Positions 1-21,238 of a stretch of 64,000 bases of DNA are shown here, piece by piece. Made by a program: the position numbers and the translations under genes. The stretch is taken from the NCBI RefSeq assembly GCF_049671445.1, contig NZ_JBATUX010000021.1, positions 17,906-81,905 on the forward strand, read 5' to 3'. How positions within the stretch are numbered: position 1 is the stretch's first letter; each line of letters begins with the position of its first letter. Below the pieces are notes generated by a model that was not told where the DNA came from, ran no database searches, and was given only the letters and a program-made list of their open reading frames with translations. This DNA is from Paenisporosarcina sp. (GTDB taxonomy: Bacteria > Bacillota > Bacilli > Bacillales_A > Planococcaceae).

Positions 1-239
1 CGTCCATACTTGCGAATGATTAAAAACACAATATATGAACCAATAGCTGTCCCAGCCCAAGAAATTAAAAACCCTATCCATAAACCATATGCGCTAGCAT
101 TGGCAAAAACGAATGCAAATAGGGGTAAAAAGGGTAAAAAAGATTCTAAAAATGGTAATAAGAATCCGATGAGAGGTCCAAGTGATTTGTAATCTCTTGT
201 TAGTTCTAATAAATTTTCTGCTGTTAGCCAATCGAACAT
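1..239 (-). CDS. DedA/TVP38-type membrane protein, N-terminal part (gene runs off the left window edge)
   Basis: Truncated, so absent from the ORF track. Reverse-strand ATG at 239-237 preceded by GAGGATGAGGA. Reads MFDWLTAENLLELTRDYKSLGPLIGFLLPFLESFFPFLPLFAFVFANASAYGLWIGF..., a hydrophobic DedA/SNARE-associated-like N-terminus. Confidence 0.55.
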   Translation of the reverse strand, partial: MFDWLTAENLLELTRDYKSLGPLIGFLLPFLESFLPFLPLFAFVFANASAYGLWIGFLISWAGTAIGSYIVFLIIRKYG

Positions 240-304
240 GATCCTCATCCTCAAAAATAATATAGTTATATTTCAGTTTTCCCGAGTCAGGCTAGCATCA
301 AACA

Positions 305-856
305 TTATTGATAGGTAATGATTAGATGAGTTACAGACATCGTTTCACCGGCATTTATATAACGGTGTGTTTGACTTCCCGAAAAAACTAAGGTGTCCCC
401 TGATTCGAGATTAACGTCTTCAGCTTCTAATATGATTTTCAATTGTCCATTGACAACCGTTAATGACTCCTCGACTCCATCCATATGTGCAGCACTTTCA
501 TACGAACAGTGTGGATCTAACTCAATCCTGTAAAGCTCCCAACCACGGTCTGGACTATACGGAATGATAGAAAATACCCGATAGCGTCCTTCGTCTTCTG
601 TTAAGAATGGGATTTCTGAAGATGAAATTTTTTTCACAGTAGATTTTGGTGGTTGTAAAAGAGTAGAGAAACTAATTTTCAATCCATCGGCAATTTTCCA
701 CATGGTCGATACAGTCGGATTTGACTCACCTTTTTCCATTTGTGCAAGTTGTGCTTTACTGACATCTGTCAGTTTCGCAATATCATCTAAACTCATTCCA
801 CGTTGATGACGGATTTTTTTTAATTGAACACCTAAATTACGTCTCATCTGTTCCAT
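305..856 (-). CDS. XRE-family HTH transcriptional regulator with C-terminal cupin domain
   Basis: 183-aa ORF. N-terminal HTH_3-like segment (MSLDDIAKLTDVSKAQLAQMEKGESNPT) and a beta-rich C-terminal half typical of cupin_2. Divergent from azlCD. Confidence 0.85.
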   Translation of the reverse strand: MEQMRRNLGVQLKKIRHQRGMSLDDIAKLTDVSKAQLAQMEKGESNPTVSTMWKIADGLKISFSTLLQPPKSTVKKISSSEIPFLTEDEGRYRVFSIIPYSPDRGWELYRIELDPHCSYESAAHMDGVEESLTVVNGQLKIILEAEDVNLESGDTLVFSGSQTHRYINAGETMSVTHLIITYQ

Positions 857-870
857 AGTTTCACCTCTTA

Positions 871-899
871 TTGTTTATTTTAACATACAGTTGTATAAT
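871..899 (+). promoter_or_regulatory. Putative sigma-A promoter for azlCD
   Basis: TTGTTT (871-876), 17-nt spacer, TATAAT (894-899), about 35 nt upstream of the azlC ATG. Confidence 0.4.
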
Positions 900-933
900 C
901 TATTAAACATTCAGCGATAGGAGCATAATACAT

Positions 934-1620
934 ATGACATTTATGAATGGAATTCGGGCAGGATTAAGCATCGCAATCGGATACTTTCCAATTGCCCTAA
1001 CGTTTGGTTTACTCGCTAAAACAACCGGCTTATCTATGTGGGAAGCAACGGCTATGAGTATATTTGTTTTTGCAGGGGCTGCACAGTACATATCATTAAC
1101 CTTAATTTCAACAGGCGTTGATCCTATATTAATTGTTTTAAACACGTTTGTCGTCAACATTCGTCACTTCTTAATGACGGCATCATTGAATGAAAAGATG
1201 CAACCTGACGCACGTTGGAAAAAAGCCATATATGCATTTGGCGTTACAGATGAAACATTTTCAGTTTTAGCCACACAAACACGCGATAATATTCGGACAT
1301 CCTTTGCTGCAGGCGTCATATTAATCTCCTACGGTAGCTGGGTCGTCTTTACAGCACTCGGACACGTGATTGGTGCTAACTTACCTGAGTTCCTTCAAGC
1401 AGCTATGTCTATAGCATTATATGCAATGTTCGTAGGCTTGCTCGTGCCTTCAATGAAAGGCAATCGAAAAGTAGTATTGCTCGCCTTATTCGGTGCAGCC
1501 ATTCACAGTGCTTTGTATTGGAGCGGCTTACTATCAACTGGCTGGGCAATTCTCGTTGCCACCCTGGGTTCCGCTATGTTGGTTGAAATTCTGTATTCCA
1601 AGAAAGGACGTGAAGCTTAA
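934..1620 (+). CDS. azlC: AzlC-family branched-chain amino acid exporter subunit
   Basis: 228-aa polytopic membrane ORF with an AzlC-like N-terminus (GIRAGLSIAIGYFPIALTFGLLA). Its stop overlaps the start of the small azlD-like ORF (ATGA-type junction at 1620). Confidence 0.88.
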   Translation: MTFMNGIRAGLSIAIGYFPIALTFGLLAKTTGLSMWEATAMSIFVFAGAAQYISLTLISTGVDPILIVLNTFVVNIRHFLMTASLNEKMQPDARWKKAIYAFGVTDETFSVLATQTRDNIRTSFAAGVILISYGSWVVFTALGHVIGANLPEFLQAAMSIALYAMFVGLLVPSMKGNRKVVLLALFGAAIHSALYWSGLLSTGWAILVATLGSAMLVEILYSKKGREA

Positions 1621-1928
1621 TGGAAAAGTGGTATTGGTGGATGATTCTCGGAATGGCAATTGTGACCTATATACCCCGTGCCTTTCCTTTAACATTTTTA
1701 GAAGGACGTGAATTACCACCACTAGTTAGTGGTGTTTTGAGAAATATTCCGTTTGCTGTATTAGGTGCTCTGATATTTCCTGCCATCTTATTCGTTCAAG
1801 AAGGCAATCTATTGTTCGGCTTCATTGGTGCTGTCGCGGCCTTTGCTTTCGCATTTGCTGGAGCAAACGTAATCATCGTAGTGATGGGCTCCATTGCAGT
1901 ATTAGCGATCTATAGTTTGATAGGCTAA
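1620..1928 (+). CDS. azlD: AzlD-family small membrane subunit
   Basis: 102-aa hydrophobic ORF translationally coupled to azlC. Size and position are typical of AzlD. Confidence 0.82.
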   Translation: MEKWYWWMILGMAIVTYIPRAFPLTFLEGRELPPLVSGVLRNIPFAVLGALIFPAILFVQEGNLLFGFIGAVAAFAFAFAGANVIIVVMGSIAVLAIYSLIG

Positions 1929-1949
1929 ATGAGTAGGAGTATAGTGGTT

Positions 1950-2213
1950 CAGGTTGACGAAGTGACTCTCCAGGTTGACGAAGGGGCTCTCCAGGTTGAC
2001 GAAGTTGTTCTTCAGGTTGACGAAGTGGCTCTACAGGTTAACGAAATAGCGCTACAGGTTGTACAAAATGGTCTCTACCCCATAAAGAGGCCGCGAGCTG
2101 GAGCTTCAGGTTGACTTAGTGATCTCTAGGTTGACGAAGTGATCTCTAGGTTGACGAAGTGGGGCTACGGGTTGACGAAGTGGCGCTCCAGGTTGTACAA
2201 AATGGTCTCTACA
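1950..2213. repeat. 21-bp tandem repeat array, family a. Two sub-arrays of unit CAGGTTGACGAAGTGNCTCTC, each ending in CAGGTTGTACAAAATGGTCTCTAC.
   Basis: Units in register at 1950, 1971, 1992, 2013 and 2034, cap at 2055. Second sub-array at 2107-2188, cap at 2189-2213. Confidence 0.95.
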
Positions 2214-2264
2214 CCCATTTTCAACCCATAATAAATAACTGAATGATTTATTTTCAAAAATATC

Positions 2265-2293
2265 TTGACGATTTACTTCGAAAAGCGTAAAGT
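2265..2293 (+). promoter_or_regulatory. Putative sigma-A promoter of the S-box leader
   Basis: TTGACG (2265-2270), 17-nt spacer, TAAAGT (2288-2293), about 40 nt upstream of the riboswitch P1 helix. Confidence 0.45.
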
Positions 2294-2334
2294 CATAATC
2301 AATTCTTGCAACAATTTAATAGCAACACATCACT

Positions 2335-2455
2335 TTCTTATCTAGAGAGACCGAGGGACAGGCCCTTTGACGTCTCGGCAGCGGATTCAACTTAATTGTT
2401 GAAAACTGTGCCAACTCCTGCAAGCGGACAAATCTATTCGCTTGGAAGATGAGAA
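2335..2455 (+). promoter_or_regulatory. SAM-I (S-box) riboswitch aptamer
   Basis: TTCTTATCTAGAGAGACCGAGGGACAGGCCCTTTGACGTCTCGGCAGC...GTGCCAACTCCTGCAAG...GGAAGATGAGAA matches the conserved S-box core (cuuAUCaAGAG.GG..GAGGGAc.GGCCC..GA..C..GCAACC...GUGCcAA.UCC.GCA...GAUaAG). P1 is formed by TTCTTATC and GATGAGAA. Confidence 0.85.
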
Positions 2456-2477
2456 CGAGATGGTTTTCCATAAATAT

Positions 2478-2526
2478 GGAGAGCCTTCTTTTTCTTGAGT
2501 ATAAGAAAAAGAAGGCTCTCCTTTTT
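2478..2526 (+). terminator. Intrinsic terminator (expression platform of the S-box leader)
   Basis: GGAGAGCCTTCTTTTTC / loop / GAAAAAGAAGGCTCTCC followed by TTTTT. Confidence 0.8.
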
Positions 2527-2710
2527 CGTTCAGAGATAGAAAGTTGATTAGCTAAAATTGCTTGCGGAATCAATTATTTCTCTTACAGGGTTTCTAACTT
2601 AATCCCTTGAGACAATGGTTGACCATTCTTCAGTAAGGAGGTTCCGCTTAATTCATCGCACCCACTTCAACAAACAAGCTTTTACTAATTAAAAATTGGA
2701 GGAATATAAA

Positions 2711-3916
2711 ATGACATTGGTAATTGATTTGAAATCTCGGATTTATGAAAGCATCGATAGCCATTCAGAGCGAATAATCTCATTAGCAAAAGAAATTCAT
2801 GCGAAACCTGAAATTGGCAATGAAGAAGTATTTGCTAGCAGCTCATTAAGCGACTATTTACGTGAATTTGGTTTTGATGTGGATCTTGGTGTGGCTGGTC
2901 ATGATACTGCCTTTTATGCTGTTAAAGATTCAGGTATCGAAGGTCCAACCATCGCATTTTTAGCCGAATATGATGCCCTTCCAGGTTTAGGTCATGCATG
3001 CGGCCATAACATTATCGGAACGACAAGTGTTGCTGCCGGCATTGCACTATCCGAAGCATTGTTAGAAACGGGTGGAAAGGTTATTGTCCTAGGTACTCCT
3101 GCAGAAGAAGGTGGTCCGAATGGTAGTGCTAAAGGAAGCTTTGTACGACATGGCTTTTTAGAAGATGTTGATGTTGCTTTAATGATTCATCCATCGGGAC
3201 GTACTAGTTTAACTAGTCCCACATTAGCTGTGGATCCACTTGATTTTCATTTTTATGGCACAGCAGCACATGCTTCTGGTTCTCCTGAAAAAGGAATTAA
3301 CGCGTTGGATTCCGTCATTCATTTATTCAATGGCATCAATGCTCTTCGACAACATCTCACAAGTGATGTACGTATTCATGGCATCATCACCCATGGTGGG
3401 GATGCGCCGAACATTGTGCCGGACTATGCTTCTGCTCGATTTTACATCCGTGCAGACACTTGGGCTAAAACAGAAGCTGTAAGTACACGTATTCGTGCGA
3501 TTGCAGAAGGTGCTGCTTTATCAACAGGTGCAACCGTAAAAGTAGAACGATTCCAAAACGAGGTTCAGGACTTCGTGTTAAATCATGTACTCGACAGTGT
3601 GTTGCATGAAGAATTGGAGTCACAGGGTGAAGTTGTATTCTCAAAACGAAGTCGAGGATTAGGCTCAACGGACGCTGGCAACATTAGCTATGCCGTGCCG
3701 ACTGCACATCCTTATATAAAAATAGGACCCGACGAATTAATTGCCCACACGAATGAATTTCGTGAAGCAGCAAATTCCGACATTGGTTACAACGCTTTAG
3801 TCACTGGCGCAAAAGCACTTGCTGGAGCAGGTTATCGCTTATTGAGCGAACCAGAATTACTACATCAAGTACGAAAAGCGCATGAAGCAGCGCTTGAATC
3901 TAAGAATAAAGAATAA
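2711..3916 (+). CDS. M20-family amidohydrolase / metallopeptidase (AmhX/AbgB/YxeP-like)
   Basis: ORF 2696-3916, start trimmed to ATG 2711 (GGAGG at 2699-2703). Carries M20D-like motifs GHACGHN, GTPAEEGG and MIHP. Confidence 0.88.
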   Translation: MTLVIDLKSRIYESIDSHSERIISLAKEIHAKPEIGNEEVFASSSLSDYLREFGFDVDLGVAGHDTAFYAVKDSGIEGPTIAFLAEYDALPGLGHACGHNIIGTTSVAAGIALSEALLETGGKVIVLGTPAEEGGPNGSAKGSFVRHGFLEDVDVALMIHPSGRTSLTSPTLAVDPLDFHFYGTAAHASGSPEKGINALDSVIHLFNGINALRQHLTSDVRIHGIITHGGDAPNIVPDYASARFYIRADTWAKTEAVSTRIRAIAEGAALSTGATVKVERFQNEVQDFVLNHVLDSVLHEELESQGEVVFSKRSRGLGSTDAGNISYAVPTAHPYIKIGPDELIAHTNEFREAANSDIGYNALVTGAKALAGAGYRLLSEPELLHQVRKAHEAALESKNKE

Positions 3917-3953: not shown

Positions 3954-3960
3954 GATTTGA
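3954..3960. repeat. Left copy of the 7-bp direct repeat GATTTGA (target duplication or crossover core)
   Basis: Identical heptamer at 9967-9973. It is immediately outside the terminal inverted repeats. Confidence 0.8.
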
Positions 3961-3989
3961 TTAAGCCGTTCAGTTTTGAATCACTTTTC
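3961..3989 (+). repeat. Left terminal inverted repeat TTAAGCCGTTCAGTTTTGAATCACTTTTC
   Basis: Its reverse complement matches 9938-9966 at 28 of 29 positions. A further CCTAAATA match lies 11-12 nt further in (4001-4009 versus 9930-9937). Confidence 0.85.
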
Positions 3990-4004
3990 TTGAATTATAA
4001 CCCT

Positions 4005-4046
4005 AAATAGACACCCAATTAGCTAGTCAATTGGATGTCTATTTTT
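4005..4046 (+). terminator. Hairpin plus T-run inside the left end of the element
   Basis: AAATAGACACCCAATT / AGCTAGTC / AATTGGATGTCTATTT followed by TTTT. One mismatch in the stem. Confidence 0.6.
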
Positions 4047-4261
4047 TATTGATATATCAAGGTTTGTATAGATTTTACTCTTAATATAACCATCCCATTG
4101 ACAGGTCAATTATTGCTATTACAACTGTGATTGTAAATTGATTATTTCGGTGTCTAATTGGCGTGATAAAGGGGTGTGGAATTGAATTGTTGAAAAACAA
4201 CCAAATGAACTAAACAAGTAACCTGTAAACAGTAAAATGAATACTTGTGTTCAGAAAATAT

Positions 4262-4294
4262 AAAAAAACACTGATTAATTTCTCAGTGTTTTCT
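4262..4294 (-). terminator. Bidirectional intrinsic terminator downstream of the TPR gene
   Basis: A-run, AACACTGA / TTAATTTC / TCAGTGTT, then T-run. Confidence 0.6.
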
Positions 4295-4331
4295 GGTTGT
4301 AATTTTTAGTAAGCTTAATTTTCATCTACGC

Positions 4332-4362
4332 TTATTCAACTAAAGCACTCGTTAGTTAAAAA
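4332..4362 (+). repeat. Cassette-boundary site S1 (variant B): TTATTCAACTAA-AGCACTC-GTTAGTTAAAAA
   Basis: Member of the ...ACTAA(C)-N7-GTTAG... family. Located 11 nt beyond the TPR gene stop. Confidence 0.75.
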
Positions 4363-4372
4363 TGGTACTCAT

Positions 4373-4960
4373 TTAATTCTGTATGTTTTGTGCGAACTCT
4401 ATTGCTTGTTCAGTGGAATAAATTAAAGATGAATTACCTTTTGATTTTCTAAGCTCTAACGCTGCCTGAAAGCATTTTATTGCATCTTCTACTCTATTTA
4501 ATTCTAAGAGGCACTTACCTTTGTGCTGAAATGCAAAATCTAAGTATAAATTTTCATCCGTTTCCTCACATTTAATCAATGCCAGATTAAATTTCTCCAA
4601 TGCTTCTTCAAGTTTATTATCATATTTCAAAGCCTCTCCAAGACGAATTAAAGAGATGATTTCTCTTTTGTAGTGCTTTCCCTCGATTGCATACTTTAGG
4701 TTTATTTCTAAATAGTTAATTGCTGTTTTGGGCTTCCCATATATCCTATAAAGATTTCCTAGTGTTCCATAAAGAAAATACTTTTCCTCTTTATTAATTA
4801 AAGTATCTTCTTTTATTTGATCTAGAAATACTTCAGCTTTAATAATAAATTGTTTTAACTTCGAAAGATTTGATGATTTCTCGCGAAGATACTGATTTGA
4901 ATCAAAATAAATTATATCAGTAATTGAAGAAAGTTCTTCTCTCAACTCTTTGAAATCCAT
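4373..4960 (-). CDS. TPR-repeat protein
   Basis: ORF 4373-4993, start trimmed to ATG 4960 (AGGGGGA 5 nt upstream). Repeated 34-aa TPR-like units (...LGNLYRIYGKPKTAINYLE..., ...LGEALKYDNKLEEALEKFNLAL...). Confidence 0.78.
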   Translation of the reverse strand: MDFKELREELSSITDIIYFDSNQYLREKSSNLSKLKQFIIKAEVFLDQIKEDTLINKEEKYFLYGTLGNLYRIYGKPKTAINYLEINLKYAIEGKHYKREIISLIRLGEALKYDNKLEEALEKFNLALIKCEETDENLYLDFAFQHKGKCLLELNRVEDAIKCFQAALELRKSKGNSSLIYSTEQAIEFAQNIQN

Positions 4961-5030
4961 ACAAATCCCCCTATTCATAAAAACTCTGTTCATTTGTCGT
5001 CTAATTTATCTAACCAATCGATTAAATCAA

Positions 5031-5306
5031 TTATGTTTGAACTGGAGCAACACTCCAATTAATCTTATTTACACCTTTAACATTAATGTTGCCTAAACTC
5101 AAAATATGGGGAATATGTGCGAACATCCCAAATTTAACACCCTTTCTATGTTCTTCTGTGAAGTATGCTAATGTGTCTGATGGCAAAGCTGAACATTCTT
5201 GATATGAAATTATATCAATGATTTGAATTTCTTCATCAGGAATATCCGTAGCTGGACCTTTATAATTTTCTTTATTATAGAAATACACAGCATTTTTATT
5301 TTTCAT
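5031..5306 (-). CDS. Hypothetical protein. Possibly the C-terminal half of a split gene together with 5303-5566.
   Basis: 91-aa ORF. Its ATG overlaps the upstream stop in ATGA within an A-rich run. Confidence 0.5.
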   Translation of the reverse strand: MKNKNAVYFYNKENYKGPATDIPDEEIQIIDIISYQECSALPSDTLAYFTEEHRKGVKFGMFAHIPHILSLGNINVKGVNKINWSVAPVQT

Positions 5307-5566
5307 TCTTTTTTAATACTTACACCATGAGAATGTAAAGCTTCGTAAACATAGTAAGGGTGAAGGGGTAGTAAAAAAATTACATCATTCCATAGACAAT
5401 TTAATTTGGGGATGCTTTTCAATAATAAGCTCTCCCTTTCTGGATGGTCAAAATACTTTTTTGAGTAGGTTTTATAAAGTTCGGGATGCATCAATTTTAT
5501 CTCATTAAGAGAAATAAGAGCCTCTCCCGTCATTTTTTTAGACACCATATGATAAACGTAATCCAT
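5303..5566 (-). CDS. Hypothetical protein. Possibly the N-terminal half of a split gene.
   Basis: ORF 5303-5569, start placed at ATG 5566 (GGAGG 7 nt upstream). Confidence 0.55.
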   Translation of the reverse strand: MDYVYHMVSKKMTGEALISLNEIKLMHPELYKTYSKKYFDHPERESLLLKSIPKLNCLWNDVIFLLPLHPYYVYEALHSHGVSIKKE

Positions 5567-5780
5567 CAAATTTCCTCCTCATAAAAGGTTAATTCTTAAA
5601 AGGACGACTTCCTTAGTATCCTTTTATTCCCTTTTCACCACTCATATTACCTAGAAAAACAAATAAAAAACAGACTGATAATTTATGGAATAATATGCTA
5701 TAATTGAATTAACTTAGAAACAGAGAACCGCTAGAGAATGTAATTCTTCTCTAGCGGTTTTATAATGTTCTGCCAGTTTC

Positions 5781-5866
5781 TTATTGAACTAACCTGCCCC
5801 GTTAGTACAATAAGTTCAACAAAAAATGCGTTAATCCTTCTTGGATCAACGCACCCGTTAGTGAAA
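5781..5866 (+). repeat. Composite cassette-boundary site S2. It comprises the 13-7-13 palindrome (5781-5813), a second hairpin (5827-5853) and GCACCCGTTAGTG.
   Basis: TTATTGAACTAAC-CTGCCCC-GTTAGTACAATAA, then TGCGTTAATCC-TTCTT-GGATCAACGCA, then CCCGTTAGTG. Near-identical to 8285-8373. Confidence 0.85.
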
Positions 5867-5909
5867 TTTAATCCCAATAATTAAATACCAAATGAGTATA
5901 AACAAAACA

Positions 5910-6446
5910 TTATTTAACGCACTTATACATAAGAATATCATCTACATATTTATCTTCATCTATCTTATATTCTTTTATTAAACGTCCTTCCTCAATAAAA
6001 CCCACGCTTTTGTATAATGATATCGCTCTATGATTAGTGGCGAATACCCCTAAACTTACCTTTTCAATAAGAGGTTGTTTTTCAGCCCAATCCAGTAATG
6101 TTTGCAGAAGAATTTTCCCGATTCCAGCACCTCTATAGTCTCTACTTAAAGACATTGAAATTGAACCAGTATGAGATAATCTTTTTTTGTTATTAGATCG
6201 AAATACTATTGATCCTACAACGACATCATTAATTTCAGCAACAATTAAAGTTTCTTTATCATTATTTATTATCTTTTGAATTTGTTCCTTTTCTTGTTCA
6301 ATTGACATTTTTTCTAATTCCTCAGATACTACGATAAAATAATCTCCTTCAGAAATAACGGAAGCTGAAATTTCTATAAGTGCTTCAGCATCTTCTAATT
6401 CTACTGTTCGAATACTACATTTTTGATTGTTTATTATGTCTGACAT
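5910..6446 (-). CDS. GNAT-family N-acetyltransferase
   Basis: 178-aa ORF with an acetyl-CoA-binding motif-A-like segment (SRDYRGAGIGKILLQTLLDWA). GGGGGGA RBS. Confidence 0.88.
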   Translation of the reverse strand: MSDIINNQKCSIRTVELEDAEALIEISASVISEGDYFIVVSEELEKMSIEQEKEQIQKIINNDKETLIVAEINDVVVGSIVFRSNNKKRLSHTGSISMSLSRDYRGAGIGKILLQTLLDWAEKQPLIEKVSLGVFATNHRAISLYKSVGFIEEGRLIKEYKIDEDKYVDDILMYKCVK

Positions 6447-6498
6447 TTAAAATCCCCCCTGTCTATATTCAAAAAGAATTCCACAAACACATACCTAT

Positions 6499-6537
6499 AT
6501 CCTTCTTCAAGTAATGCACTCGTTAGTTGAATAAGAA
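6499..6537 (+). repeat. Cassette-boundary site S3 (right-half type): ATCCTTCTT...TGCACTCGTTAGTTGAATAAG
   Basis: Matches the second half of the composite sites S2 and S6. Its right arm is identical to that of S8. Confidence 0.7.
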
Positions 6538-6613
6538 AATAAAACATCAACTATCTACTTTATTTAAGTCTAGATTAAACAATCGTGTTAATAAATCATT
6601 AAATTCACCCTAT

Positions 6614-6901
6614 CTAAAACCTTTTAAAAAGTTTCCTTTGTTTCATATAATCAATAGCCTTAGTTTTATTCTTTTGTTTAGAAACATATATTGCTTCATT
6701 TATATCTCTATAATAGCTATTTAATCTTTCTTCTAGAAGAATACCAACAGATATTGCTTTTTTAACTGCACAGTTAGTCTCATTTGTATGAGTGCAGTCA
6801 GAAAACTTACAACTCGAAGATAATTCCAATATATCTTCATATTCATTACCTAATTTTTCTTCATAATCTACTATTTCAAACATCTTTTTATTAAACTTCA
6901 T
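6614..6901 (-). CDS. Stand-alone RsgA/YjeQ C-terminal zinc-finger fragment (95 aa)
   Basis: CKFSDCTHTNETNCAVKKAI matches the RsgA C-terminal C-x-F-x2-C-x-H-x5-C-A-V zinc motif. The OB and GTPase domains are absent. It has its own AGGGAG RBS. Confidence 0.6.
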   Translation of the reverse strand: MKFNKKMFEIVDYEEKLGNEYEDILELSSSCKFSDCTHTNETNCAVKKAISVGILLEERLNSYYRDINEAIYVSKQKNKTKAIDYMKQRKLFKRF

Positions 6902-6979
6902 TTTATAACTCCCTTTTTGTACTATGACTAACCTTCCTTTTTATTTGAAGAAGAAAAAGAGTGCCAATTCAACGCCACG

Positions 6980-7012
6980 ATCTTTAACTAACCTGCCGCG
7001 TTAGTAAAACTA
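6980..7012 (+). repeat. Cassette-boundary site S4: ATCTTTAACTAAC-CTGCCGC-GTTAGTAAAACTA
   Basis: 13-7-13 site, 65 nt upstream of the recombinase start. This is an attI-like position between the divergent recombinase and the leftward modules. Confidence 0.75.
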
Positions 7013-7076
7013 CTCATTATGTCTTTAATTCTATTAAGTTGGCAATAATTCCTTTAATCTTACATTTTTAGGAGGT

Positions 7077-7922
7077 ATGGAATTGTTACTGTCAAAAGCT
7101 TGGGCTTCGTTTGAAGCTGATAAACGAATAGAGGGTTTTTCATCGCAAACATTGAAGGCTTACCAGTTACAGACTTTGCTATTAATTGGTTATTTTAAGG
7201 ATGTAGAGATGGAATTACTGGATACAAATCAACTGAAAGAATATCTTGCTATATCGGGCAAGCATTTAAAACCAGCCAGTCTTGCACATCGTATCCGCTT
7301 TATGAAATCGTTTTTTCGTTGGTCTCATGAAGAAGGTTACCTGAAAAAGAATCCAACTTCCAAAATTAAAGAGCCCAAGGCTGGGAAGAGGATACCAAAG
7401 TATTTAACAGAACGAGAGATTGAACATCTGCGTGAATCCTGTCATTCCCCAATGGAAAAAGCGATTTTCGAATTCATGTTTTCTACAGGTTGTCGAATTG
7501 GAGAAATAGTTGCGTTAGAAAAGAACCATATTAATTGGTCCAATCAATCCGCGATCGTAAGAGGGAAAGGTGATAAGGAGAGGGAAGTTTATTTTAATAT
7601 ACGATGCGAGATATGGCTTAAACGCTATATCGAAAGCCGTGATGACAATAATCCTGCCATCTTTGTGACAGCAAGGCAACCACATAAAATGAGTGTCGCT
7701 CAAATGCGATACATCATCATGCGAATCTCAAATCGTGCTGAAATCAATAAAGAGATTCATCCACACCAACTTAGGCACAGCTATGCAACTCATTTGTTGA
7801 ATAATGGAGCTCCTATTGAGGTCATACAAAGTCTTATGGGGCATGAAAAAAGTGAAACCACAAGGATATATGCTCAATTAAGCGGAAGGTTAAGGAAAGA
7901 GTATTATCAGAAGTACTTTTAA
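7077..7922 (+). CDS. Xer-like tyrosine site-specific recombinase (281 aa)
   Basis: N-terminal SAM-like core-binding domain. The catalytic set is visible: R (STGCRIGEI), K (RGKGDKER), HxxR (HQLRHSYATH), H (LMGHEK) and Y (TRIYAQL). GGAGG at 7071-7075 favours a TTG start at 7083 as much as the ATG at 7077. Confidence 0.9.
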   Translation: MELLLSKAWASFEADKRIEGFSSQTLKAYQLQTLLLIGYFKDVEMELLDTNQLKEYLAISGKHLKPASLAHRIRFMKSFFRWSHEEGYLKKNPTSKIKEPKAGKRIPKYLTEREIEHLRESCHSPMEKAIFEFMFSTGCRIGEIVALEKNHINWSNQSAIVRGKGDKEREVYFNIRCEIWLKRYIESRDDNNPAIFVTARQPHKMSVAQMRYIIMRISNRAEINKEIHPHQLRHSYATHLLNNGAPIEVIQSLMGHEKSETTRIYAQLSGRLRKEYYQKYF

Positions 7923-7930
7923 ACGTAGAA

Positions 7931-7958
7931 GGAGCAACATCTTATAAGACGTTGCTCC
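7931..7958 (+). terminator. Hairpin after the recombinase gene
   Basis: GGAGCAAC / 12-nt loop / GTTGCTCC. The following T-run is weak. Confidence 0.45.
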
Positions 7959-7988
7959 ATTTGACTAAAGCACCCGTTAGCCATCCAT
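7958..7988 (+). repeat. Cassette-boundary site S5 (variant B): CCATTTGACTAA-AGCACCC-GTTAGCCATCC
   Basis: Shares ACTAAAGCAC(C/T)CGTTAG with S1. The arms pair poorly. Confidence 0.6.
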
Positions 7989-8073
7989 GTAGCTAAAATA
8001 ATAGCTACACCACAGATCATGAAAGAATATTACGTTCTTTCATGGGAGTTGAAGAAGAAATTTTATAGGTATA

Positions 8074-8259
8074 TTATTTTAAGTTTTTAGTCCTGCTCAA
8101 TATTTCTGAAACTCCTATTGCTATACTTGCATTAAGCATTGCGAATATAGAAATAATCATAGTTGTACCATCATATTCACCAATAAAATTCATTACAAAA
8201 AATATGAAACTAATGAAAAAAACAAGTATGCCAAAAACAAATAAAATTCTATCCAACAT
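8074..8259 (-). CDS. Small two-TM membrane protein
   Basis: ORF 8074-8265. Hydrophobic sequence (ILFVFGILVFFISFIFFVMNFI ... ISIFAMLNASIAIGV). AGGTG RBS. The start (ATG 8259 or TTG 8256) is uncertain. Confidence 0.5.
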   Translation of the reverse strand: MLDRILFVFGILVFFISFIFFVMNFIGEYDGTTMIISIFAMLNASIAIGVSEILSRTKNLK

Positions 8260-8284
8260 TATCACCTCATACCATATAATAATC

Positions 8285-8373
8285 TTTTTTCACTAACCTG
8301 CCCCGTTAGCAATAAGTTCAACAAAAAATGCGTTAACCCTTCTTGGATCAACGCACCCGTTAGTTTAATAAGG
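8285..8373 (+). repeat. Composite cassette-boundary site S6 (same architecture as S2)
   Basis: TTTTTTCACTAAC-CTGCCCC-GTTAGCAATAAGT, then TGCGTTAACCC-TTCTT-GGATCAACGCA, then CCCGTTAGTTTAATAAGG. Confidence 0.85.
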
Positions 8374-8454
8374 AAATTGTTAGAACTATAACATTGTTCT
8401 TTTAAATACGCATACCTAGTCTCAAAAACGCAAATTGCTTAAGTTATAAGACAA

Positions 8455-9117
8455 TTAACTTTTTTGTGAAAACCAGTTTAGAGTTGTTTTATTATCGCAA
8501 ATGGTCGCTTCCCAATTCATCCTTCTTATAATTCCAGCGATATTATCATCTTTTGTTAAGAATAACGTGGTATAGGCATCATATTCACTTATAAAGGCAA
8601 ACTCGAGTTTATCATCCATGAGCATAAATTCCGCTGGTGTTAAATCAGACATCTCTTCTAATTTTATTTCCTCTATTTTTAACCTTCCTTTTTCGCCTTC
8701 AAGCGGTGCAGAGTATAATACAAAATCAGCTCCTTTGGATCCAAGTACATTCACGATATCATTCAGTAAAAAAACCGAAATTTTGTCTTCCCTCGGATAA
8801 TAAAAATCGGAATTAAAGCATGTGCGAAGTTGATTCGTTAAGTCAGGTCTCTTATCTCGATGATCGTGTACTGCTATTCCGACCTCTTGCAAGGTTAAGT
8901 CGCTTTGCTGACTGATTTGATTCCACGAAACTGGTTTACCAATGTTTAATATTTCTTCGTCGCTTGGGTAGATGTGTTGAAAAGGTCTTTCCCGTTTCCT
9001 TTTTTGCCACCCATTAGGCATTTGGACAAATGGATGAAGCAGAAAAGCTGCTGATTTAAAGTGATTCGATATTTGGCTTAAAATAGGTGAAACATCTAAC
9101 TGTATATATTCCAGCAT
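8455..9117 (-). CDS. Hypothetical cytoplasmic protein (220 aa)
   Basis: Long ORF with a good RBS (AAAGGAG, 8-nt spacing). I recognise no motif. Confidence 0.72.
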   Translation of the reverse strand: MLEYIQLDVSPILSQISNHFKSAAFLLHPFVQMPNGWQKRKRERPFQHIYPSDEEILNIGKPVSWNQISQQSDLTLQEVGIAVHDHRDKRPDLTNQLRTCFNSDFYYPREDKISVFLLNDIVNVLGSKGADFVLYSAPLEGEKGRLKIEEIKLEEMSDLTPAEFMLMDDKLEFAFISEYDAYTTLFLTKDDNIAGIIRRMNWEATICDNKTTLNWFSQKS

Positions 9118-9141
9118 GTAAATTCTCCTTTAAAATGTTTT

Positions 9142-9174
9142 TTGTTCAACTAACCTGCCCCGTTAGTAGAACAA
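9142..9174 (+). repeat. Cassette-boundary site S7: TTGTTCAACTAAC-CTGCCCC-GTTAGTAGAACAA
   Basis: 13-bp arms with a single A:A mismatch at arm position 7 and a 7-nt spacer. Located 8 nt after the stop of 9183-9686 and 24 nt before the start of 8455-9117. Confidence 0.9.
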
Positions 9175-9182
9175 GGTTTAAA

Positions 9183-9686
9183 TTATCCCTGACGTAATAT
9201 CTTTTGAAACATTCTCGGTTGATGTTTTTCAAAACCTTTTATCAATTCTTTTCCAAAAATAGTGATGGTCTCTTCCCAAGGGTGTCCTAAAAATCCCCAT
9301 TCAAAATTCTTTTGAATAAAAAAGTAATAATCACCGTTAGGAAAAACAGGTACAATCCATTCATCAAACTCACTTTTCTGAAACTCCAAACGGGGGTTTA
9401 TCCAATAACCTGGATGCTGCCAATCTACCGCATACATACATTCATTCTTCTGTGTGAGTTCTTGAAAAACAAGCAATGACTTATCCTCTAGGTCATTATA
9501 AATCTCATTATAAGTACCTGAATCTCCGGACCAACTTATATATGAGGATATATCATATGTGATAAATGGATTTGGAACTTCAAAAGATGGGAAATTTGAT
9601 ATGCTTGGTTCAAAATTAAATTCATCATATATCCTATCCCATACCTCTTTATATTCTAATGCGGATAATTCAATCCAATTTTCCAT
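9183..9686 (-). CDS. Hypothetical protein (about 167 aa), Trp/Phe-rich. It resembles small immunity-type proteins of Bacilli (weak recollection only).
   Basis: ORF 9183-9698, start trimmed to ATG 9686 (GGTGG 8 nt upstream). Confidence 0.7.
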   Translation of the reverse strand: MENWIELSALEYKEVWDRIYDEFNFEPSISNFPSFEVPNPFITYDISSYISWSGDSGTYNEIYNDLEDKSLLVFQELTQKNECMYAVDWQHPGYWINPRLEFQKSEFDEWIVPVFPNGDYYFFIQKNFEWGFLGHPWEETITIFGKELIKGFEKHQPRMFQKILRQG

Positions 9687-9734
9687 TTGAATAGCCACCT
9701 TTACGATGCTTTTATTGGGGTTATTATATTATTG

Positions 9735-9770
9735 CTTGTTCAACTAAACTGCCTCGTTAGTTGAATAAGG
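9735..9770 (+). repeat. Cassette-boundary site S8: CTTGTTCAACTAA-ACTGCCTC-GTTAGTTGAATAAGG
   Basis: Last member of the site family. Its right arm is the exact complement of the S1 left arm. Confidence 0.85.
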
Positions 9771-9937
9771 AAATCTCTTATATTTATTTTATTATACCAA
9801 GAATATCCATTTTTACCTCTAAAAATTTAAAATTTTCTATTATTTATAAAAGCACCTCGAAAAGAGGTGCTAATTCGGGTTATATTTGGCTGTTTATTTT
9901 GTTAATAAAACAGGCTTGATTTGACCGTTTATTTAGG

Positions 9938-9966
9938 GAAAAGTGACTCAAAACTGAACGGCTTAA
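9938..9966 (-). repeat. Right terminal inverted repeat GAAAAGTGACTCAAAACTGAACGGCTTAA
   Basis: Reverse complement of 3961-3989 with one mismatch. Confidence 0.85.
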
Positions 9967-9973
9967 GATTTGA
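9967..9973. repeat. Right copy of the 7-bp direct repeat GATTTGA
   Basis: Identical to 3954-3960. Followed by TGGATGTCTTTTGTTTT, the right arm and T-run of the split terminator. Confidence 0.8.
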
Positions 9974-10017: not shown

Positions 10018-10143
10018 CTATGAGCGGTTTTGTGTCGACTATGAGCGCATTCCTGTCGACTATCGGCGCAAAAGACATGGCTATCGGCGAATCTTTGTCG
10101 TCTATCGGCGGTTCTCTGTCGTCTATGAGCGGTTTAACAAAAA
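10018..10143. repeat. 21-bp tandem repeat array, family b (6 units, CTAT(G/C)(A/G)GCG-N7-GTCG(A/T))
   Basis: Units in perfect 21-bp register: CTATGAGCGGTTTTGTGTCGA, CTATGAGCGCATTCCTGTCGA, CTATCGGCGCAAAAGACATGG, CTATCGGCGAATCTTTGTCGT, CTATCGGCGGTTCTCTGTCGT, CTATGAGCGGTTTAACAAAAA. Confidence 0.9.
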
Positions 10144-19677: not shown

Positions 19678-20562
19678 TTAAACGCGTAAAAACTTTCTCA
19701 CCGACATGAAGCTTCCCCATACGCCAATAAAAATACCCATCACGATAATTAAGATGTTTACTTGGAATAAAAATGGTGTAAGTGGTAATAAATTAAACAA
19801 TTCGCCTTCTAAATATGGTTGAAGTATTTGATATAGATTGTAATAAAGAACACTTACAAGAGTAATAGGTAGGATGGAACCAAGGATTCCTATCCACATT
19901 CCTTCTAACACGAAAGGAATTCGGACAAAACTATTTGTCGCTCCTACTAGTTTCATAATCTCTATTTCACGACGACGTGCAACAATCGTAATTCGAATCG
20001 TATTTGAAATTAAGAACATTGCGGTAAATAGTAAGGCTAAAATCAAGCCTAGTCCTACATTTCGAGCAACATTTAAGAATTCGAACAACTTCTCAATTTT
20101 ACCTTCGCCATATTCTACTGAATATGTATTTTTAAGTCGGTCAATATTCTCTGCAACTTTTTCAGTTTCTTGAGGGTTAGTTGCTTTTACGTAAAAAGCA
20201 GCTCGAAGGGGATTGTTTTGATCAGATAATCCCATGGTTCCACCGAAATCTTTAATTAAATCTTCAAGTTCGGCTTCTTTCGTAGAGTATGTAAGAGATG
20301 CTACGCCATCAAGATTTTTAATTTGTTCTTCTAACTTTTCAGCAGCTTTTTCATCAGATGTTAGTTCGACTAATACTTTGATTTCAACATCTTTTTCTAA
20401 ATCGTCTGCGACTTTATTTAAATTCATCATGATCATGACGAATACGCCTACTAATAGTAATGTAACGGTTACAGCACTTGCAGAAGCAAATGTCATCCAA
20501 CTATTACGACCTAAACTTTTAAAACTTTCTCGGAAATGACGACCTACTGTTCTAGCTTTCAT
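19678..20562 (-). CDS. ftsX: Cell division ABC transporter permease FtsX
   Basis: ORF 19678-20589, start trimmed to ATG 20562 (GGAGGTG 9 nt upstream; overlaps the ftsE stop). N-terminus GRHFRESFKSLGRNSWMTFASASAVTV is typical of FtsX. Confidence 0.9.
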   Translation of the reverse strand: MKARTVGRHFRESFKSLGRNSWMTFASASAVTVTLLLVGVFVMIMMNLNKVADDLEKDVEIKVLVELTSDEKAAEKLEEQIKNLDGVASLTYSTKEAELEDLIKDFGGTMGLSDQNNPLRAAFYVKATNPQETEKVAENIDRLKNTYSVEYGEGKIEKLFEFLNVARNVGLGLILALLFTAMFLISNTIRITIVARRREIEIMKLVGATNSFVRIPFVLEGMWIGILGSILPITLVSVLYYNLYQILQPYLEGELFNLLPLTPFLFQVNILIIVMGIFIGVWGSFMSVRKFLRV

Positions 20563-21238
20563 AACCGTAGGCACCTCCAACTTCATCACGTACTACTAAT
20601 CCGCCTTCAACGGCTATAACACGGTGTTTATTTGTATTTACAATTTCTTTATTATGAGTTGCCATAATAATTGTTGTTCCTCGACGATTAATTTCTTCAA
20701 ATAAATTCATAATATCCCATGAAGTTTCAGGATCTAAGTTACCTGTTGGTTCGTCCGCAATCATCACTTTCGGAACATTGACAATAGAACGGGCAATTGA
20801 GATACGTTGTTGTTCTCCTCCTGAAAGTTCAGTTGGAAACATGCGTGCTTTATGTTTTAGGCCTACTAAATCCAAAACTTCCATTACACGTTTACGAATT
20901 ACTTTTGGTGATTCTTCAATTACTTCTAATGCAAAAGCAACGTTTTCATAAACAGTTAACCGAGGCAATAATTTGAAGTCTTGAAAGACTACGCCGATTT
21001 GTCTTCTTAAATAGGGAACACGTTTCGACTTCAGTGTCGCCAAATTGATACCATTAACTACTATATCTCCGCTCGTTGGTCGTTCTTCTCTATACATCAT
21101 CTTGATGAATGTCGATTTACCAGCCCCACTGGGACCTACCACATAAACAAATTCACCTTGTTTTATTTCTACGTTAAATCCATTAGCGGCAACTATACCG
21201 TTTGGATATTTTTTATAGACATTTTTCATTGAAATCAT
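20552..21238 (-). CDS. ftsE: Cell division ATP-binding protein FtsE
   Basis: ORF 20552-21253, start trimmed to ATG 21238. Walker A GPSGAGKST, signature LSGGEQQR, Walker B MIADEPTGNLD. Confidence 0.93.
   Translation of the reverse strand: MISMKNVYKKYPNGIVAANGFNVEIKQGEFVYVVGPSGAGKSTFIKMMYREERPTSGDIVVNGINLATLKSKRVPYLRRQIGVVFQDFKLLPRLTVYENVAFALEVIEESPKVIRKRVMEVLDLVGLKHKARMFPTELSGGEQQRISIARSIVNVPKVMIADEPTGNLDPETSWDIMNLFEEINRRGTTIIMATHNKEIVNTNKHRVIAVEGGLVVRDEVGGAYGYES

Follow-up and report, generated by a model that had tools for sequence, protein, structure and literature searches.

Introduction

Integrons are the textbook platform for gene capture, and their crossover takes place at the G/TT of the sequence GTTRRRY. 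On Acinetobacter plasmids, gene modules are bounded by dif-like sites (pdif modules), which alternate in orientation. The rAID-1 systems (recombinase-associated acquired interbacterial defence) combine an Xer-family recombinase with short, co-oriented genes of low G+C content and repeated intergenic motifs; active gene acquisition has been proposed for them, and their definition requires a recombinase with 44% or more identity to B. fragilis BF9343_RS08045. Bacillales are almost devoid of integrons, and analysis with IntegronFinder 2.0 revealed one complete integron in Bacillota (PMC9024848). Here we describe an island of 6,006 bp in the DNA of Paenisporosarcina sp. (contig NZ_JBATUX010000021.1, positions 17,906 to 81,905; this whole stretch of 64,000 nucleotides is called the window), which contains the gene for an Xer-like tyrosine recombinase and an array of genes located between short, directly repeated sites. 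Comparison with related loci makes it rather probable that Bacillales have a site-specific gene-cassette platform, of which the island is an example; it would be integron-like in the way it works and assembled from different parts.

The sites of the island

The island (positions 3961–9966 of the window) contains ten sites on the plus strand between positions 4331 and 9768, all ending in the invariant sequence CGTTAG. They are of two types, 32–33 nucleotides long and conserved in sequence. The T1 sites (TTCAACTAAC-CTGCCNC-GTTAGTTGAA) have two arms of 13 nucleotides around a spacer of seven and are located at 5781–5813 (S2), 6980–7012 (S4), 8285–8317 (S6), 9142–9174 (S7) and 9736–9768 (S8, the rightmost site of the array). 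S2, S6, S7 and S8 were identified as repeats and by strict-core matches; S4, the left boundary of the recombinase module, was identified by a strict-core match and as the point at which homology starts in more than 40 loci. The T2 sites (GAAGTAA(A)-GCACCC-GTTAGTTGAAGAAG) are found at 4331–4364 (S1, caactaaaGCACTCGTTAGttaaaaa, the leftmost site of the array, 18 nucleotides past the stop codon of a TPR gene; hidden Markov model (HMM) E-value 1.3e-6), 5837–5870 (S2b, E = 1.2e-5), 6502–6535 (S3, E = 2e-8) and 8339–8372 (S6b, E = 4e-8). The remaining T2 site, S5, forms the right boundary of the recombinase module; its left arm and core are at 7956–7980 and its right arm (TTGAAGAAG, 8049–8057) is displaced by an insertion of 68 nucleotides. 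S2b and S6b are each located about 55 nucleotides to the right of S2 and S6, in a 60-nucleotide direct repeat with 95% identity.

The strict core is matched ten times in these 5.4 kb of the island and nowhere in the remaining 58 kb of the window, and the HMM, made from related sites, matches the 64-kb window only within positions 4331–9771. The scatter of a REP- or BOX-like repeat over ordinary intergenic DNA, named by the first-pass annotation as the pattern that would speak against a cassette array, is not seen in the window. The eight sites of that annotation are all present at the coordinates it gave, on the plus strand, with CGTTAG invariant; its count fell short by two, with S2b and S6b having been overlooked.

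Linkage of the sites to the recombinase

The genome collection contains 170 relatives of the recombinase, and the comparison covers 79 loci of these. Recombinase loci are present in Psychrobacillus, Paenisporosarcina, Lysinibacillus, Sporosarcina, Viridibacillus, Neobacillus, Peribacillus, Metabacillus and other genera, often with several copies per genome. The strict T2 core (GCNCNCGTTAG) is matched 206 times in the 79 loci. Its strand is that of the recombinase gene in loci with recombinase identities of about 74% or more, with L075, a frameshifted copy, as the sole exception; in the clade with 60–65% identity the T2 cores are on the strand opposite to the recombinase, except for three plus-strand matches in L073. 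The 39 full-length loci (812 kb) contain 188 strict T1 and T2 sites versus 2.0 in shuffled sequences, about 90-fold over chance, and the density of sites is maximal within 2 kb of the recombinase gene, at 0.5 per kb. Scanning the relatives, as the first-pass annotation had proposed, thus shows that the sites track the recombinase family over at least ten genera and are densest beside the gene.

The same was observed when 260 kb of the 266-kb plasmid pSP10-266k of Sporosarcina psychrophila were scanned. Six sites surround a recombinase gene of 94% identity, and one solo site and three armless chance matches complete the set, together with an array of three sites (locus L091, record positions 74437–75500), 55 kb away from the recombinase array. 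This last array lacks a recombinase, holds the second copy of a GNAT cassette and one further gene, and is comparable to the clusters of attC sites lacking integron integrases (CALINs). With sites clustering with the recombinase both in the loci and on the plasmid, they are tied to this recombinase family and are not a genome-wide REP element.

The recombinase

The recombinase gene (7077–7922, plus strand) codes for a protein of 281 amino acids that matches Phage_integrase at 3.2e-39. Motif and alignment comparison predicts the full R-K-H-R-H-Y set of catalytic residues, namely Arg140, Lys164 or Lys167, His230, Arg233, His256 and Tyr265. The best curated model is that of archaeal XerA (XerA_Arch, NF040815), with a borderline 219.9 bits against a cut-off of 220. 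The scores for XerD (202.3 bits versus 329.6) and XerC (199.4 versus 335) are both below the cut-off, and the IntI models TIGR02249 (88.5 bits versus 265) and PRK15417 (53.5 versus 435) have their best stretch at residues 202–268 in both cases. The nearest structures are those of XerA (PDB entry 4a8e) and XerD (1a0p), which align from end to end with no large insertion, while IntI4 (2a3v) aligns to residues 201–269 only. From these scores and alignments the protein is best described as Xer-like, though apparently not an orthologue of the dimer-resolution enzymes. It is not an IntI, as had been proposed from its short length. The family comprises 867 protein clusters at E <= 1e-30, which carry generic names in the databases. 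Carriage of the system by phages was considered and rejected: phage records contain no recombinase more than 40% identical, and the T2 consensus is absent from viral contigs.

Site anatomy and point of exchange

The consensus was built from 198 non-redundant T2 sites and 95 T1 sites. Core-type sites of tyrosine recombinases (the loxP, FRT and dif class) have inverted arms of 11–13 nucleotides, an asymmetric spacer of 6–8 nucleotides and a crossover at the spacer border, and the sites described here conform to this plan. Both arms fit one common consensus, which would fit a single homomeric enzyme. When pairs of sites that have only their left flank in common are compared, they are identical through position +4 (the G of GTTAG being position 0) and at background level from +5, while pairs with only their right flank in common are already unlinked at –2. 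The putative exchange point is thus confined to C-GTTAG, the right spacer border (positions –1 to +4). The invariant stretch of the site is 11 nucleotides only, probably too short for RecA-type homologous recombination.

Analogy to the attC sites of integrons had been suggested by the arm tips and by an A:A mismatch in S2 and S7. The mismatch is real; the arm position concerned is Watson-Crick paired in only 34% of the T1 sites. The analogy itself does not hold. There is no covariation between the arms, pairing being no better than with shuffled partners, either in the array or in circularised form. The hairpins that the single-stranded sites can form are no more stable than about –8 to –9.5 kcal/mol and do not differ between the strands; those of S1 and S4 are no better than the hairpins of shuffled sequences. 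Attributing attC-like folding to the sites was therefore rejected: conserved in sequence, devoid of covariation and with weak folding that is the same for both strands, they look like classical double-strand core sites, unlike attC.

In a Bacillaceae clade with 74–80% recombinase identity (L032, L038, L040, L041, L044, L045 and L047), a site is located about 80–100 nucleotides upstream of the recombinase gene. It reads ...CTGCYNC(A/G)ATAGTTGAATA, with ATAG consistently replacing TTAG, and could be specialised or inactivated.

Modules as units of exchange

The recombinase gene is located in a 1-kb module (6981–7980) between a T1 and a T2 site, and it has such a T1-to-T2 slot in both clades. Homologues of this module are present on the plasmid and in over 40 loci, with flanking DNA that differs everywhere. 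In these loci the homology sets in within S4 (6981–6993) and extends to the GTTAG of S5; most of the clade with at least 85% identity has a T1-like site at the S4 offset, and in most loci ordinary T1 and T2 sites flank the recombinase. S4, previously compared to an attI site, is an ordinary left boundary of this mobile module, with cassettes on both sides of the recombinase.

Cargo modules recur in the same manner. The DUF2716 cassette (9145–9769) is present in P. macmurdoensis (L001, 1814–2437) with 94.7% identity, about 8 kb upstream of the recombinase versus 1.2 kb downstream in the window, and its left half-site in L001 is T2-like, not T1. Cassettes are also common to different genera: L026 10932–11850 corresponds to L049 8534–9454 and L016 1421–2082 to L061 15687–16346, and L049 also shares one with L059. 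The homology between genera stops at sites or within about 40 nucleotides of them. The GNAT cassette of 650 nucleotides is present twice on pSP10-266k (20112–20753 and 75086–74437); the copies are 97.7% identical, are inverted together with their sites and lose homology at the T1 and T2 cores. The apparent correspondence of L020 96–928 to L036 13385–14217 is false, both being group II intron sequence.

The arrays are thus mosaics of modules. Module order and content differ in essentially every relative, and breakpoints of homology between loci are confined to the site core, within CGTTAG, both of which the first-pass annotation had proposed to look for.

Array organisation and cargo

The longest open reading frame (ORF) was scored in 182 intervals between sites, of 150–3500 nucleotides. 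It is antisense to the sites in 141 of them and sense in 36, about 22 of the latter being the recombinase; about 90% of the cargo genes other than the recombinase are antisense. The rule is also valid in the clade whose recombinase genes point the other way with respect to the sites. Sites of the two types follow one another in all four possible combinations. T2-to-T1 intervals are gene-sized without exception, whereas 23 of the 50 T1-to-T2 intervals are 160 nucleotides or shorter. Most of the short T1-to-T2 modules (41–62 nucleotides) are intrinsic terminators for the cargo strand, with stems that vary and cores that remain constant, and some of about 105 nucleotides contain a terminator and a conserved TTGTGAAATGTTACACTTAAA motif. 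In 53 of 141 cassettes, the cargo gene stops no more than 40 nucleotides from the downstream site. The start codon is separated from the upstream site by a median of 127 nucleotides, so that many cassettes may carry their own promoter, unlike integron cassettes.

The cargo is diverse, with 157 ORFs in 139 families. Pfam analysis of 138 representatives revealed eight GNAT, three APH and three glyoxalase/bleomycin-resistance fold proteins, and two each of flavin adenine dinucleotide (FAD) monooxygenases, alpha/beta hydrolases, methyltransferases, SMI1/KNR4 and NUDIX proteins. A FosM-family fosfomycin-resistance protein is encoded in L077 (7862–8290; 277 bits versus an NCBI cut-off of 255). On pSP10-266k, one cassette contains merR-merA-NUDIX and another an IS110 transposase. 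A Tet(X)-like cargo protein scores 231 versus the family cut-off of 750 and is not claimed as a resistance gene. The cargo shows no enrichment for anti-phage defence or immunity proteins. A reading as defence islands was rejected, with the PADLOC matches in the cargo stemming essentially from one group II intron reverse transcriptase.

In the island itself, all cargo genes are on the minus strand, confirming the leftward reading described earlier. From left to right, they code for a TPR-repeat protein (4373–4993; TPR_2 at 6.5e-11, also TPR_12), two small proteins of 88 and 91 amino acids with no family match (5031–5569), a GNAT acetyltransferase (5910–6446; Acetyltransf_1, 2.9e-19), a 95-residue protein resembling the carboxy-terminal zinc finger of RsgA (6614–6901; TIGR00157, 2.8e-10, profile positions 185–244 only), a hydrophobic 63-residue peptide with no family match, for which the first-pass annotation called two transmembrane helices (8074–8265), a DUF2711 protein (8455–9117; 1.3e-68) and a DUF2716 protein (9183–9698; family match). 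The earlier TPR, GNAT, RsgA-like and recombinase assignments were borne out, and the two proteins described only by their length have become DUF2711 and DUF2716. The ORFs 5031–5306 and 5303–5569, regarded earlier as one split frame, overlap by the ATGA at 5303–5306 and are therefore more likely to be translationally coupled genes than products of a frameshift.

Intrinsic terminators for the cargo strand (minus) are located at 5824–5856, with a 14-pair stem and a T-run, and at 8326–8358. Both form T1-to-T2 modules, the former of them short, and the former overlaps the left arm and spacer of S2b. A further terminator-like hairpin on this strand is present at 5726–5759, upstream of the pair of small ORFs. 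A search of the island against Rfam gave no match at E <= 0.1. A promoter-like match on the minus strand (TTGCCA-18-CATAAT, 10/12; 7016–7045) is situated in the 5' region of the recombinase module and aims leftward through S4 into the cargo; its –10 element is only partly conserved across other loci.

Insertion elements at the sites

The 68 nucleotides that split S5 (7981–8048, plus strand) are inserted exactly between CGTTAG and the right arm. Both ends match those of a full IS110-family element in L043 (10906 to about 12520), which encodes a transposase (DEDD_Tnp_IS110, 1.8e-41) and occupies the equivalent point in a T2 site; the loci contain 23 instances of the junction CGTTAG|CCATYCATG. 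The two look like a site-specific IS110-family parasite and its miniature derivative, paralleling the IS1111-attC elements.

A different IS110-family element adjoins the left side of T2 cores in L081 (8998–10200, pSP10-266k), L024 (about 129) and L060 (about 2418). Its junction is ...ccttataatacgaa|GCACCCGTTAG, and the core of 11 nucleotides is thus bracketed by two distinct insertion positions. Group II introns are present on the cargo strand in L022 (6564 to about 8532) and L036 (12202 to about 14174), both complete, and in L020 (to about 928). Rfam recognises D1-D4-6 in them, and domain V/VI also in L022 and L036. Their 5' ends are 32–40 nucleotides from T2 cores, directly after the terminator hairpin, an arrangement reminiscent of that of group IIC-attC introns.

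Ends of the island

The island ends in an inverted repeat of 29 nucleotides with one mismatch (3961–3989 and 9938–9966; 97% complementary), of which two copies are present in the 64 kb, with none expected. It is bracketed by a direct repeat of 7 bp, GATTTGA (3954–3960 and 9967–9973). Excision in silico restores a perfect terminator, AGACATCCA-GATTTGA-TGGATGTCT-TTTT, behind an M20 peptidase gene; the repeats thus sit inside the loop of a host terminator. These repeats point to a separate vehicle for this particular array. The island contains no transposase gene, the 29-nucleotide repeat is absent from all 79 loci and from plasmids, and the left end has no match among plasmids. The empty-site pattern AGACATCCA-N7-TGGATGTCTTTT gave eight metagenome matches; blastn matched the flanks of the window to none of these eight loci, and the six candidates inspected were unrelated terminators. 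The M20 peptidase and TauE proteins encoded beside the island gave no match in exact look-ups.

Just inside the left end of the island, a terminator hairpin on the plus strand (GACACCCAATT...AATTGGATGTC with a T-run, 4010–4047) has a stem that resembles the interrupted host terminator, and it may restore termination of the gene upstream of the island. Immediately to the right of the island, a tandem array with a period of 21 nucleotides is located (10018–10134); its core, GTCGNCTATSRGCG, is present in four copies versus 0.04 expected. The ORF at 1929–2114 has a heptad-like repeat too (VDEVxLQ).

Proposed working and alternative explanations

A scheme that fits these observations is as follows. 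A single Xer/XerA-like recombinase of 281 amino acids would bind the two inverted arms of about 13 nucleotides (consensus YTTNTTSAACTAA), which flank an asymmetric spacer of 6–7 nucleotides (GCACCC in T2, CTGCCNC in T1), and strands would be exchanged at or beside the invariant CGTTAG, where the spacer ends on the right. Because the sites of the array are all direct repeats, recombination between any two of them would release whatever module or modules lie in between as a circle with one site, which could then re-enter at any other site, on a chromosome or a plasmid. For the DUF2716 cassette, the predicted circle junction is ...CAACTAAACTGCCTCGTTAG|TAGAACAAGG.... Three classes of module would be moved: cargo units, which mostly consist of one gene and almost without exception are antisense to the sites; short modules with a terminator, some of them with a second conserved motif; and the recombinase gene. 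Catalysis of the exchange by this recombinase and passage through circular intermediates are what the arrangement leads us to expect, and the exchange may involve one strand or two. The capture and shuffling of cassettes proposed in the first-pass annotation is thus supported by the linkage of the sites, the differing order of modules, the breakpoints in site cores and the Xer-like alignment of the enzyme.

Several points weigh against this scheme. The support is comparative throughout, and a look-up of the recombinase found one contig with the same arrangement. The spacers of T1 and T2 differ, and the T1 base at –2 is variable and unlinked to the right flank; this fits poorly with a classical two-strand exchange, in which the overlaps must be identical, and speaks either for an exchange confined to the right spacer border or for tolerance of heterology. 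Because T2 sites overlap terminator hairpins, a role in transcription could account for some of their conservation. Some members of the clade have no sites nearby; around the copies on B. mycoides megaplasmids (63% identity), for example, no canonical sites are present within 15 kb, only the remnant of a half-site, and many arrays may therefore be frozen. Many recombinase copies are frameshifted or flanked by degenerate sites. Finally, the 29-nucleotide inverted repeat and the 7-bp direct repeat that bound the island are not explained by the recombinase model.

Other explanations give the recombinase or the sites a different part. Mobility might be restricted to the 1-kb recombinase module, as a minimal selfish integrative element that targets a pre-existing intergenic repeat, with the cargo mosaicism resulting from other processes. 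This module is by far the commonest shared unit, precisely bounded, multi-copy within genomes (Psychrobacillus sp. OK032, for example, has five loci) and assembled as contigs of about 1–1.4 kb in many metagenomes. Yet cargo cassettes with the same boundaries recur elsewhere, including the GNAT duplicate in the recombinase-less array of the same plasmid, and the strict orientation of cargo to sites would be hard to explain were these passive targets, which makes such an element an unlikely account of the whole. It is quite unlikely that we are dealing with a Bacillales counterpart of the Bacteroidales rAID-1, that is, a collection of orphan immunity genes directed against toxins of other bacteria and linked to a recombinase. 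The XerD-family recombinase, the short co-oriented gene arrays and the repetitive intergenic motifs of rAID-1 would agree, as would two SMI1/KNR4 (SUKH) cargo proteins and the small proteins without known role in the window (DUF2711, DUF2716, TPR). SUKH proteins are, however, only two of the 138 representatives, the commonest cargo being GNAT, APH, glyoxalase/Fos, FAD monooxygenases, hydrolases and methyltransferases, plus the mer genes, and the cargo genes of the main clade run against the recombinase gene instead of following it in the same direction.

That the sites are REP-like or terminator-like regulatory repeats of accessory islands, linked to the recombinase incidentally or by shared insertion preferences of mobile elements (IS110, group II introns), is very unlikely, even though T2 left arms form part of cargo-strand intrinsic terminators and both IS110-family elements and group II introns home to site sequences. 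The invariant part (GCACCCGTTAG or CTGCCNCGTTAG) is outside the terminator stem or only partly inside it, and the stems vary freely where the core does not. T1 sites have no T-run and a position upstream of genes. Sites are missing from the 58 kb of ordinary DNA around the island, form clusters on the whole plasmid instead of being spread over it, and within each clade have their strand tied to that of the recombinase. The host homologues of XerC and XerD, CodV and RipX, could in principle move dif-like modules, as has been proposed for the pdif modules of Acinetobacter, with the local recombinase as a passenger; the core-type architecture, with its inverted arms and spacer of 6–7 nucleotides, would suit this, and the local enzyme is itself Xer-like. 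We regard it as highly improbable: all sites are direct repeats, unlike those of pdif modules, a dedicated recombinase that is itself bounded by sites is present in nearly every array, and the shared arm consensus fits a homomeric enzyme such as XerA, not a XerC/XerD pair.

Beyond the cassette platform as such, we lean towards a more specific interpretation, namely that this is a second, independently evolved integron-type capture system native to Bacillales. Its XerA-like recombinase would reside on a mobile cassette of its own and would shuffle terminator modules and cassettes of single genes between chromosomes and megaplasmids, across genera. Resistance determinants (merA, FosM) would be among the cargo, and the system would have acquired parasites specific to its sites (IS110-family elements and group II introns), as counterparts of the IS1111-attC elements and IIC-attC introns. 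A full-text literature search, which included the core sequence and did not cover subscription-only papers, found no description of this system. The comparison suggests a widespread, apparently undescribed gene-shuffling system in a group almost without classical integrons. If this is true, the cassette-array solution has evolved more than once, which bears on the scarcity of integrons in Bacillota: Bacillales of soil and cold environments would have a widespread analogous platform, with an Xer-like enzyme and short sites of the double-strand type. It would also constitute an unannotated route for resistance and accessory genes (mer, fosM, GNAT, APH) between Gram-positive chromosomes and plasmids. 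With a site of about 33 nucleotides and a recombinase of 281 amino acids, the system would be compact and directly testable and might serve as a tool, and a simple site model could annotate thousands of cassettes that are anonymous at present.

Comparison with known systems

Archaeal XerA with its dif site is the nearest relative of the recombinase in both sequence and structure (NF040815, 4a8e), and with XerS and XerH it shares the mode of action to be expected here, a single recombinase acting on a near-palindromic site. These enzymes resolve chromosome dimers at one site per replicon, whereas here up to 17 sites in 20 kb bound accessory genes. In the pdif or dif modules of Acinetobacter plasmids, genes likewise lie between short Xer-type core sites (two inverted arms and a spacer of 6 nucleotides) and recur in different contexts. 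However, pdif modules use the XerC and XerD of the host and have no dedicated recombinase, and the dif-module analogy drawn in the first-pass annotation fails on both orientation and enzyme, the sites described here being all direct and the array containing a recombinase of its own.

Like rAID-1, the system combines a tyrosine recombinase of the Xer family with an array of short, co-oriented genes between repeated intergenic motifs. It belongs to another phylum and is set apart by cargo and architecture: the cargo is not dominated by immunity genes (two of 138 are SMI1/KNR4), and the genes of the main clade are antisense to the recombinase and on both of its sides, not co-directional and downstream. 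The site anatomy and the crossover position are also definable here.

The likeness to integrons is the most extensive. Diverse, mostly single-gene modules all face the same way with respect to directly repeated sites, a tyrosine recombinase gene is located at the array, arrays are chromosomal as well as plasmid-borne, and recombinase-less arrays like CALINs exist. The crossover is in a core containing G-TT (CGTTAG here), the cargo is rich in GNAT proteins and includes genes of resistance type, and IS110-family and group II intron parasites home to the sites. The differences concern the components. The recombinase is Xer/XerA-like and lacks the IntI-specific signature; the sites are short, conserved in sequence and of two types, whereas attC sites are long hairpins conserved in structure. 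There is no attI and no demonstrated cassette promoter (Pc), the recombinase gene is a cassette in its own right with other cassettes to its left and right, and many cassettes are insulated by modular terminators. Judged by these comparisons, the system appears integron-like in function, yet it lacks the defining features (IntI, attC and attI/Pc) and is not a member of the integron family.

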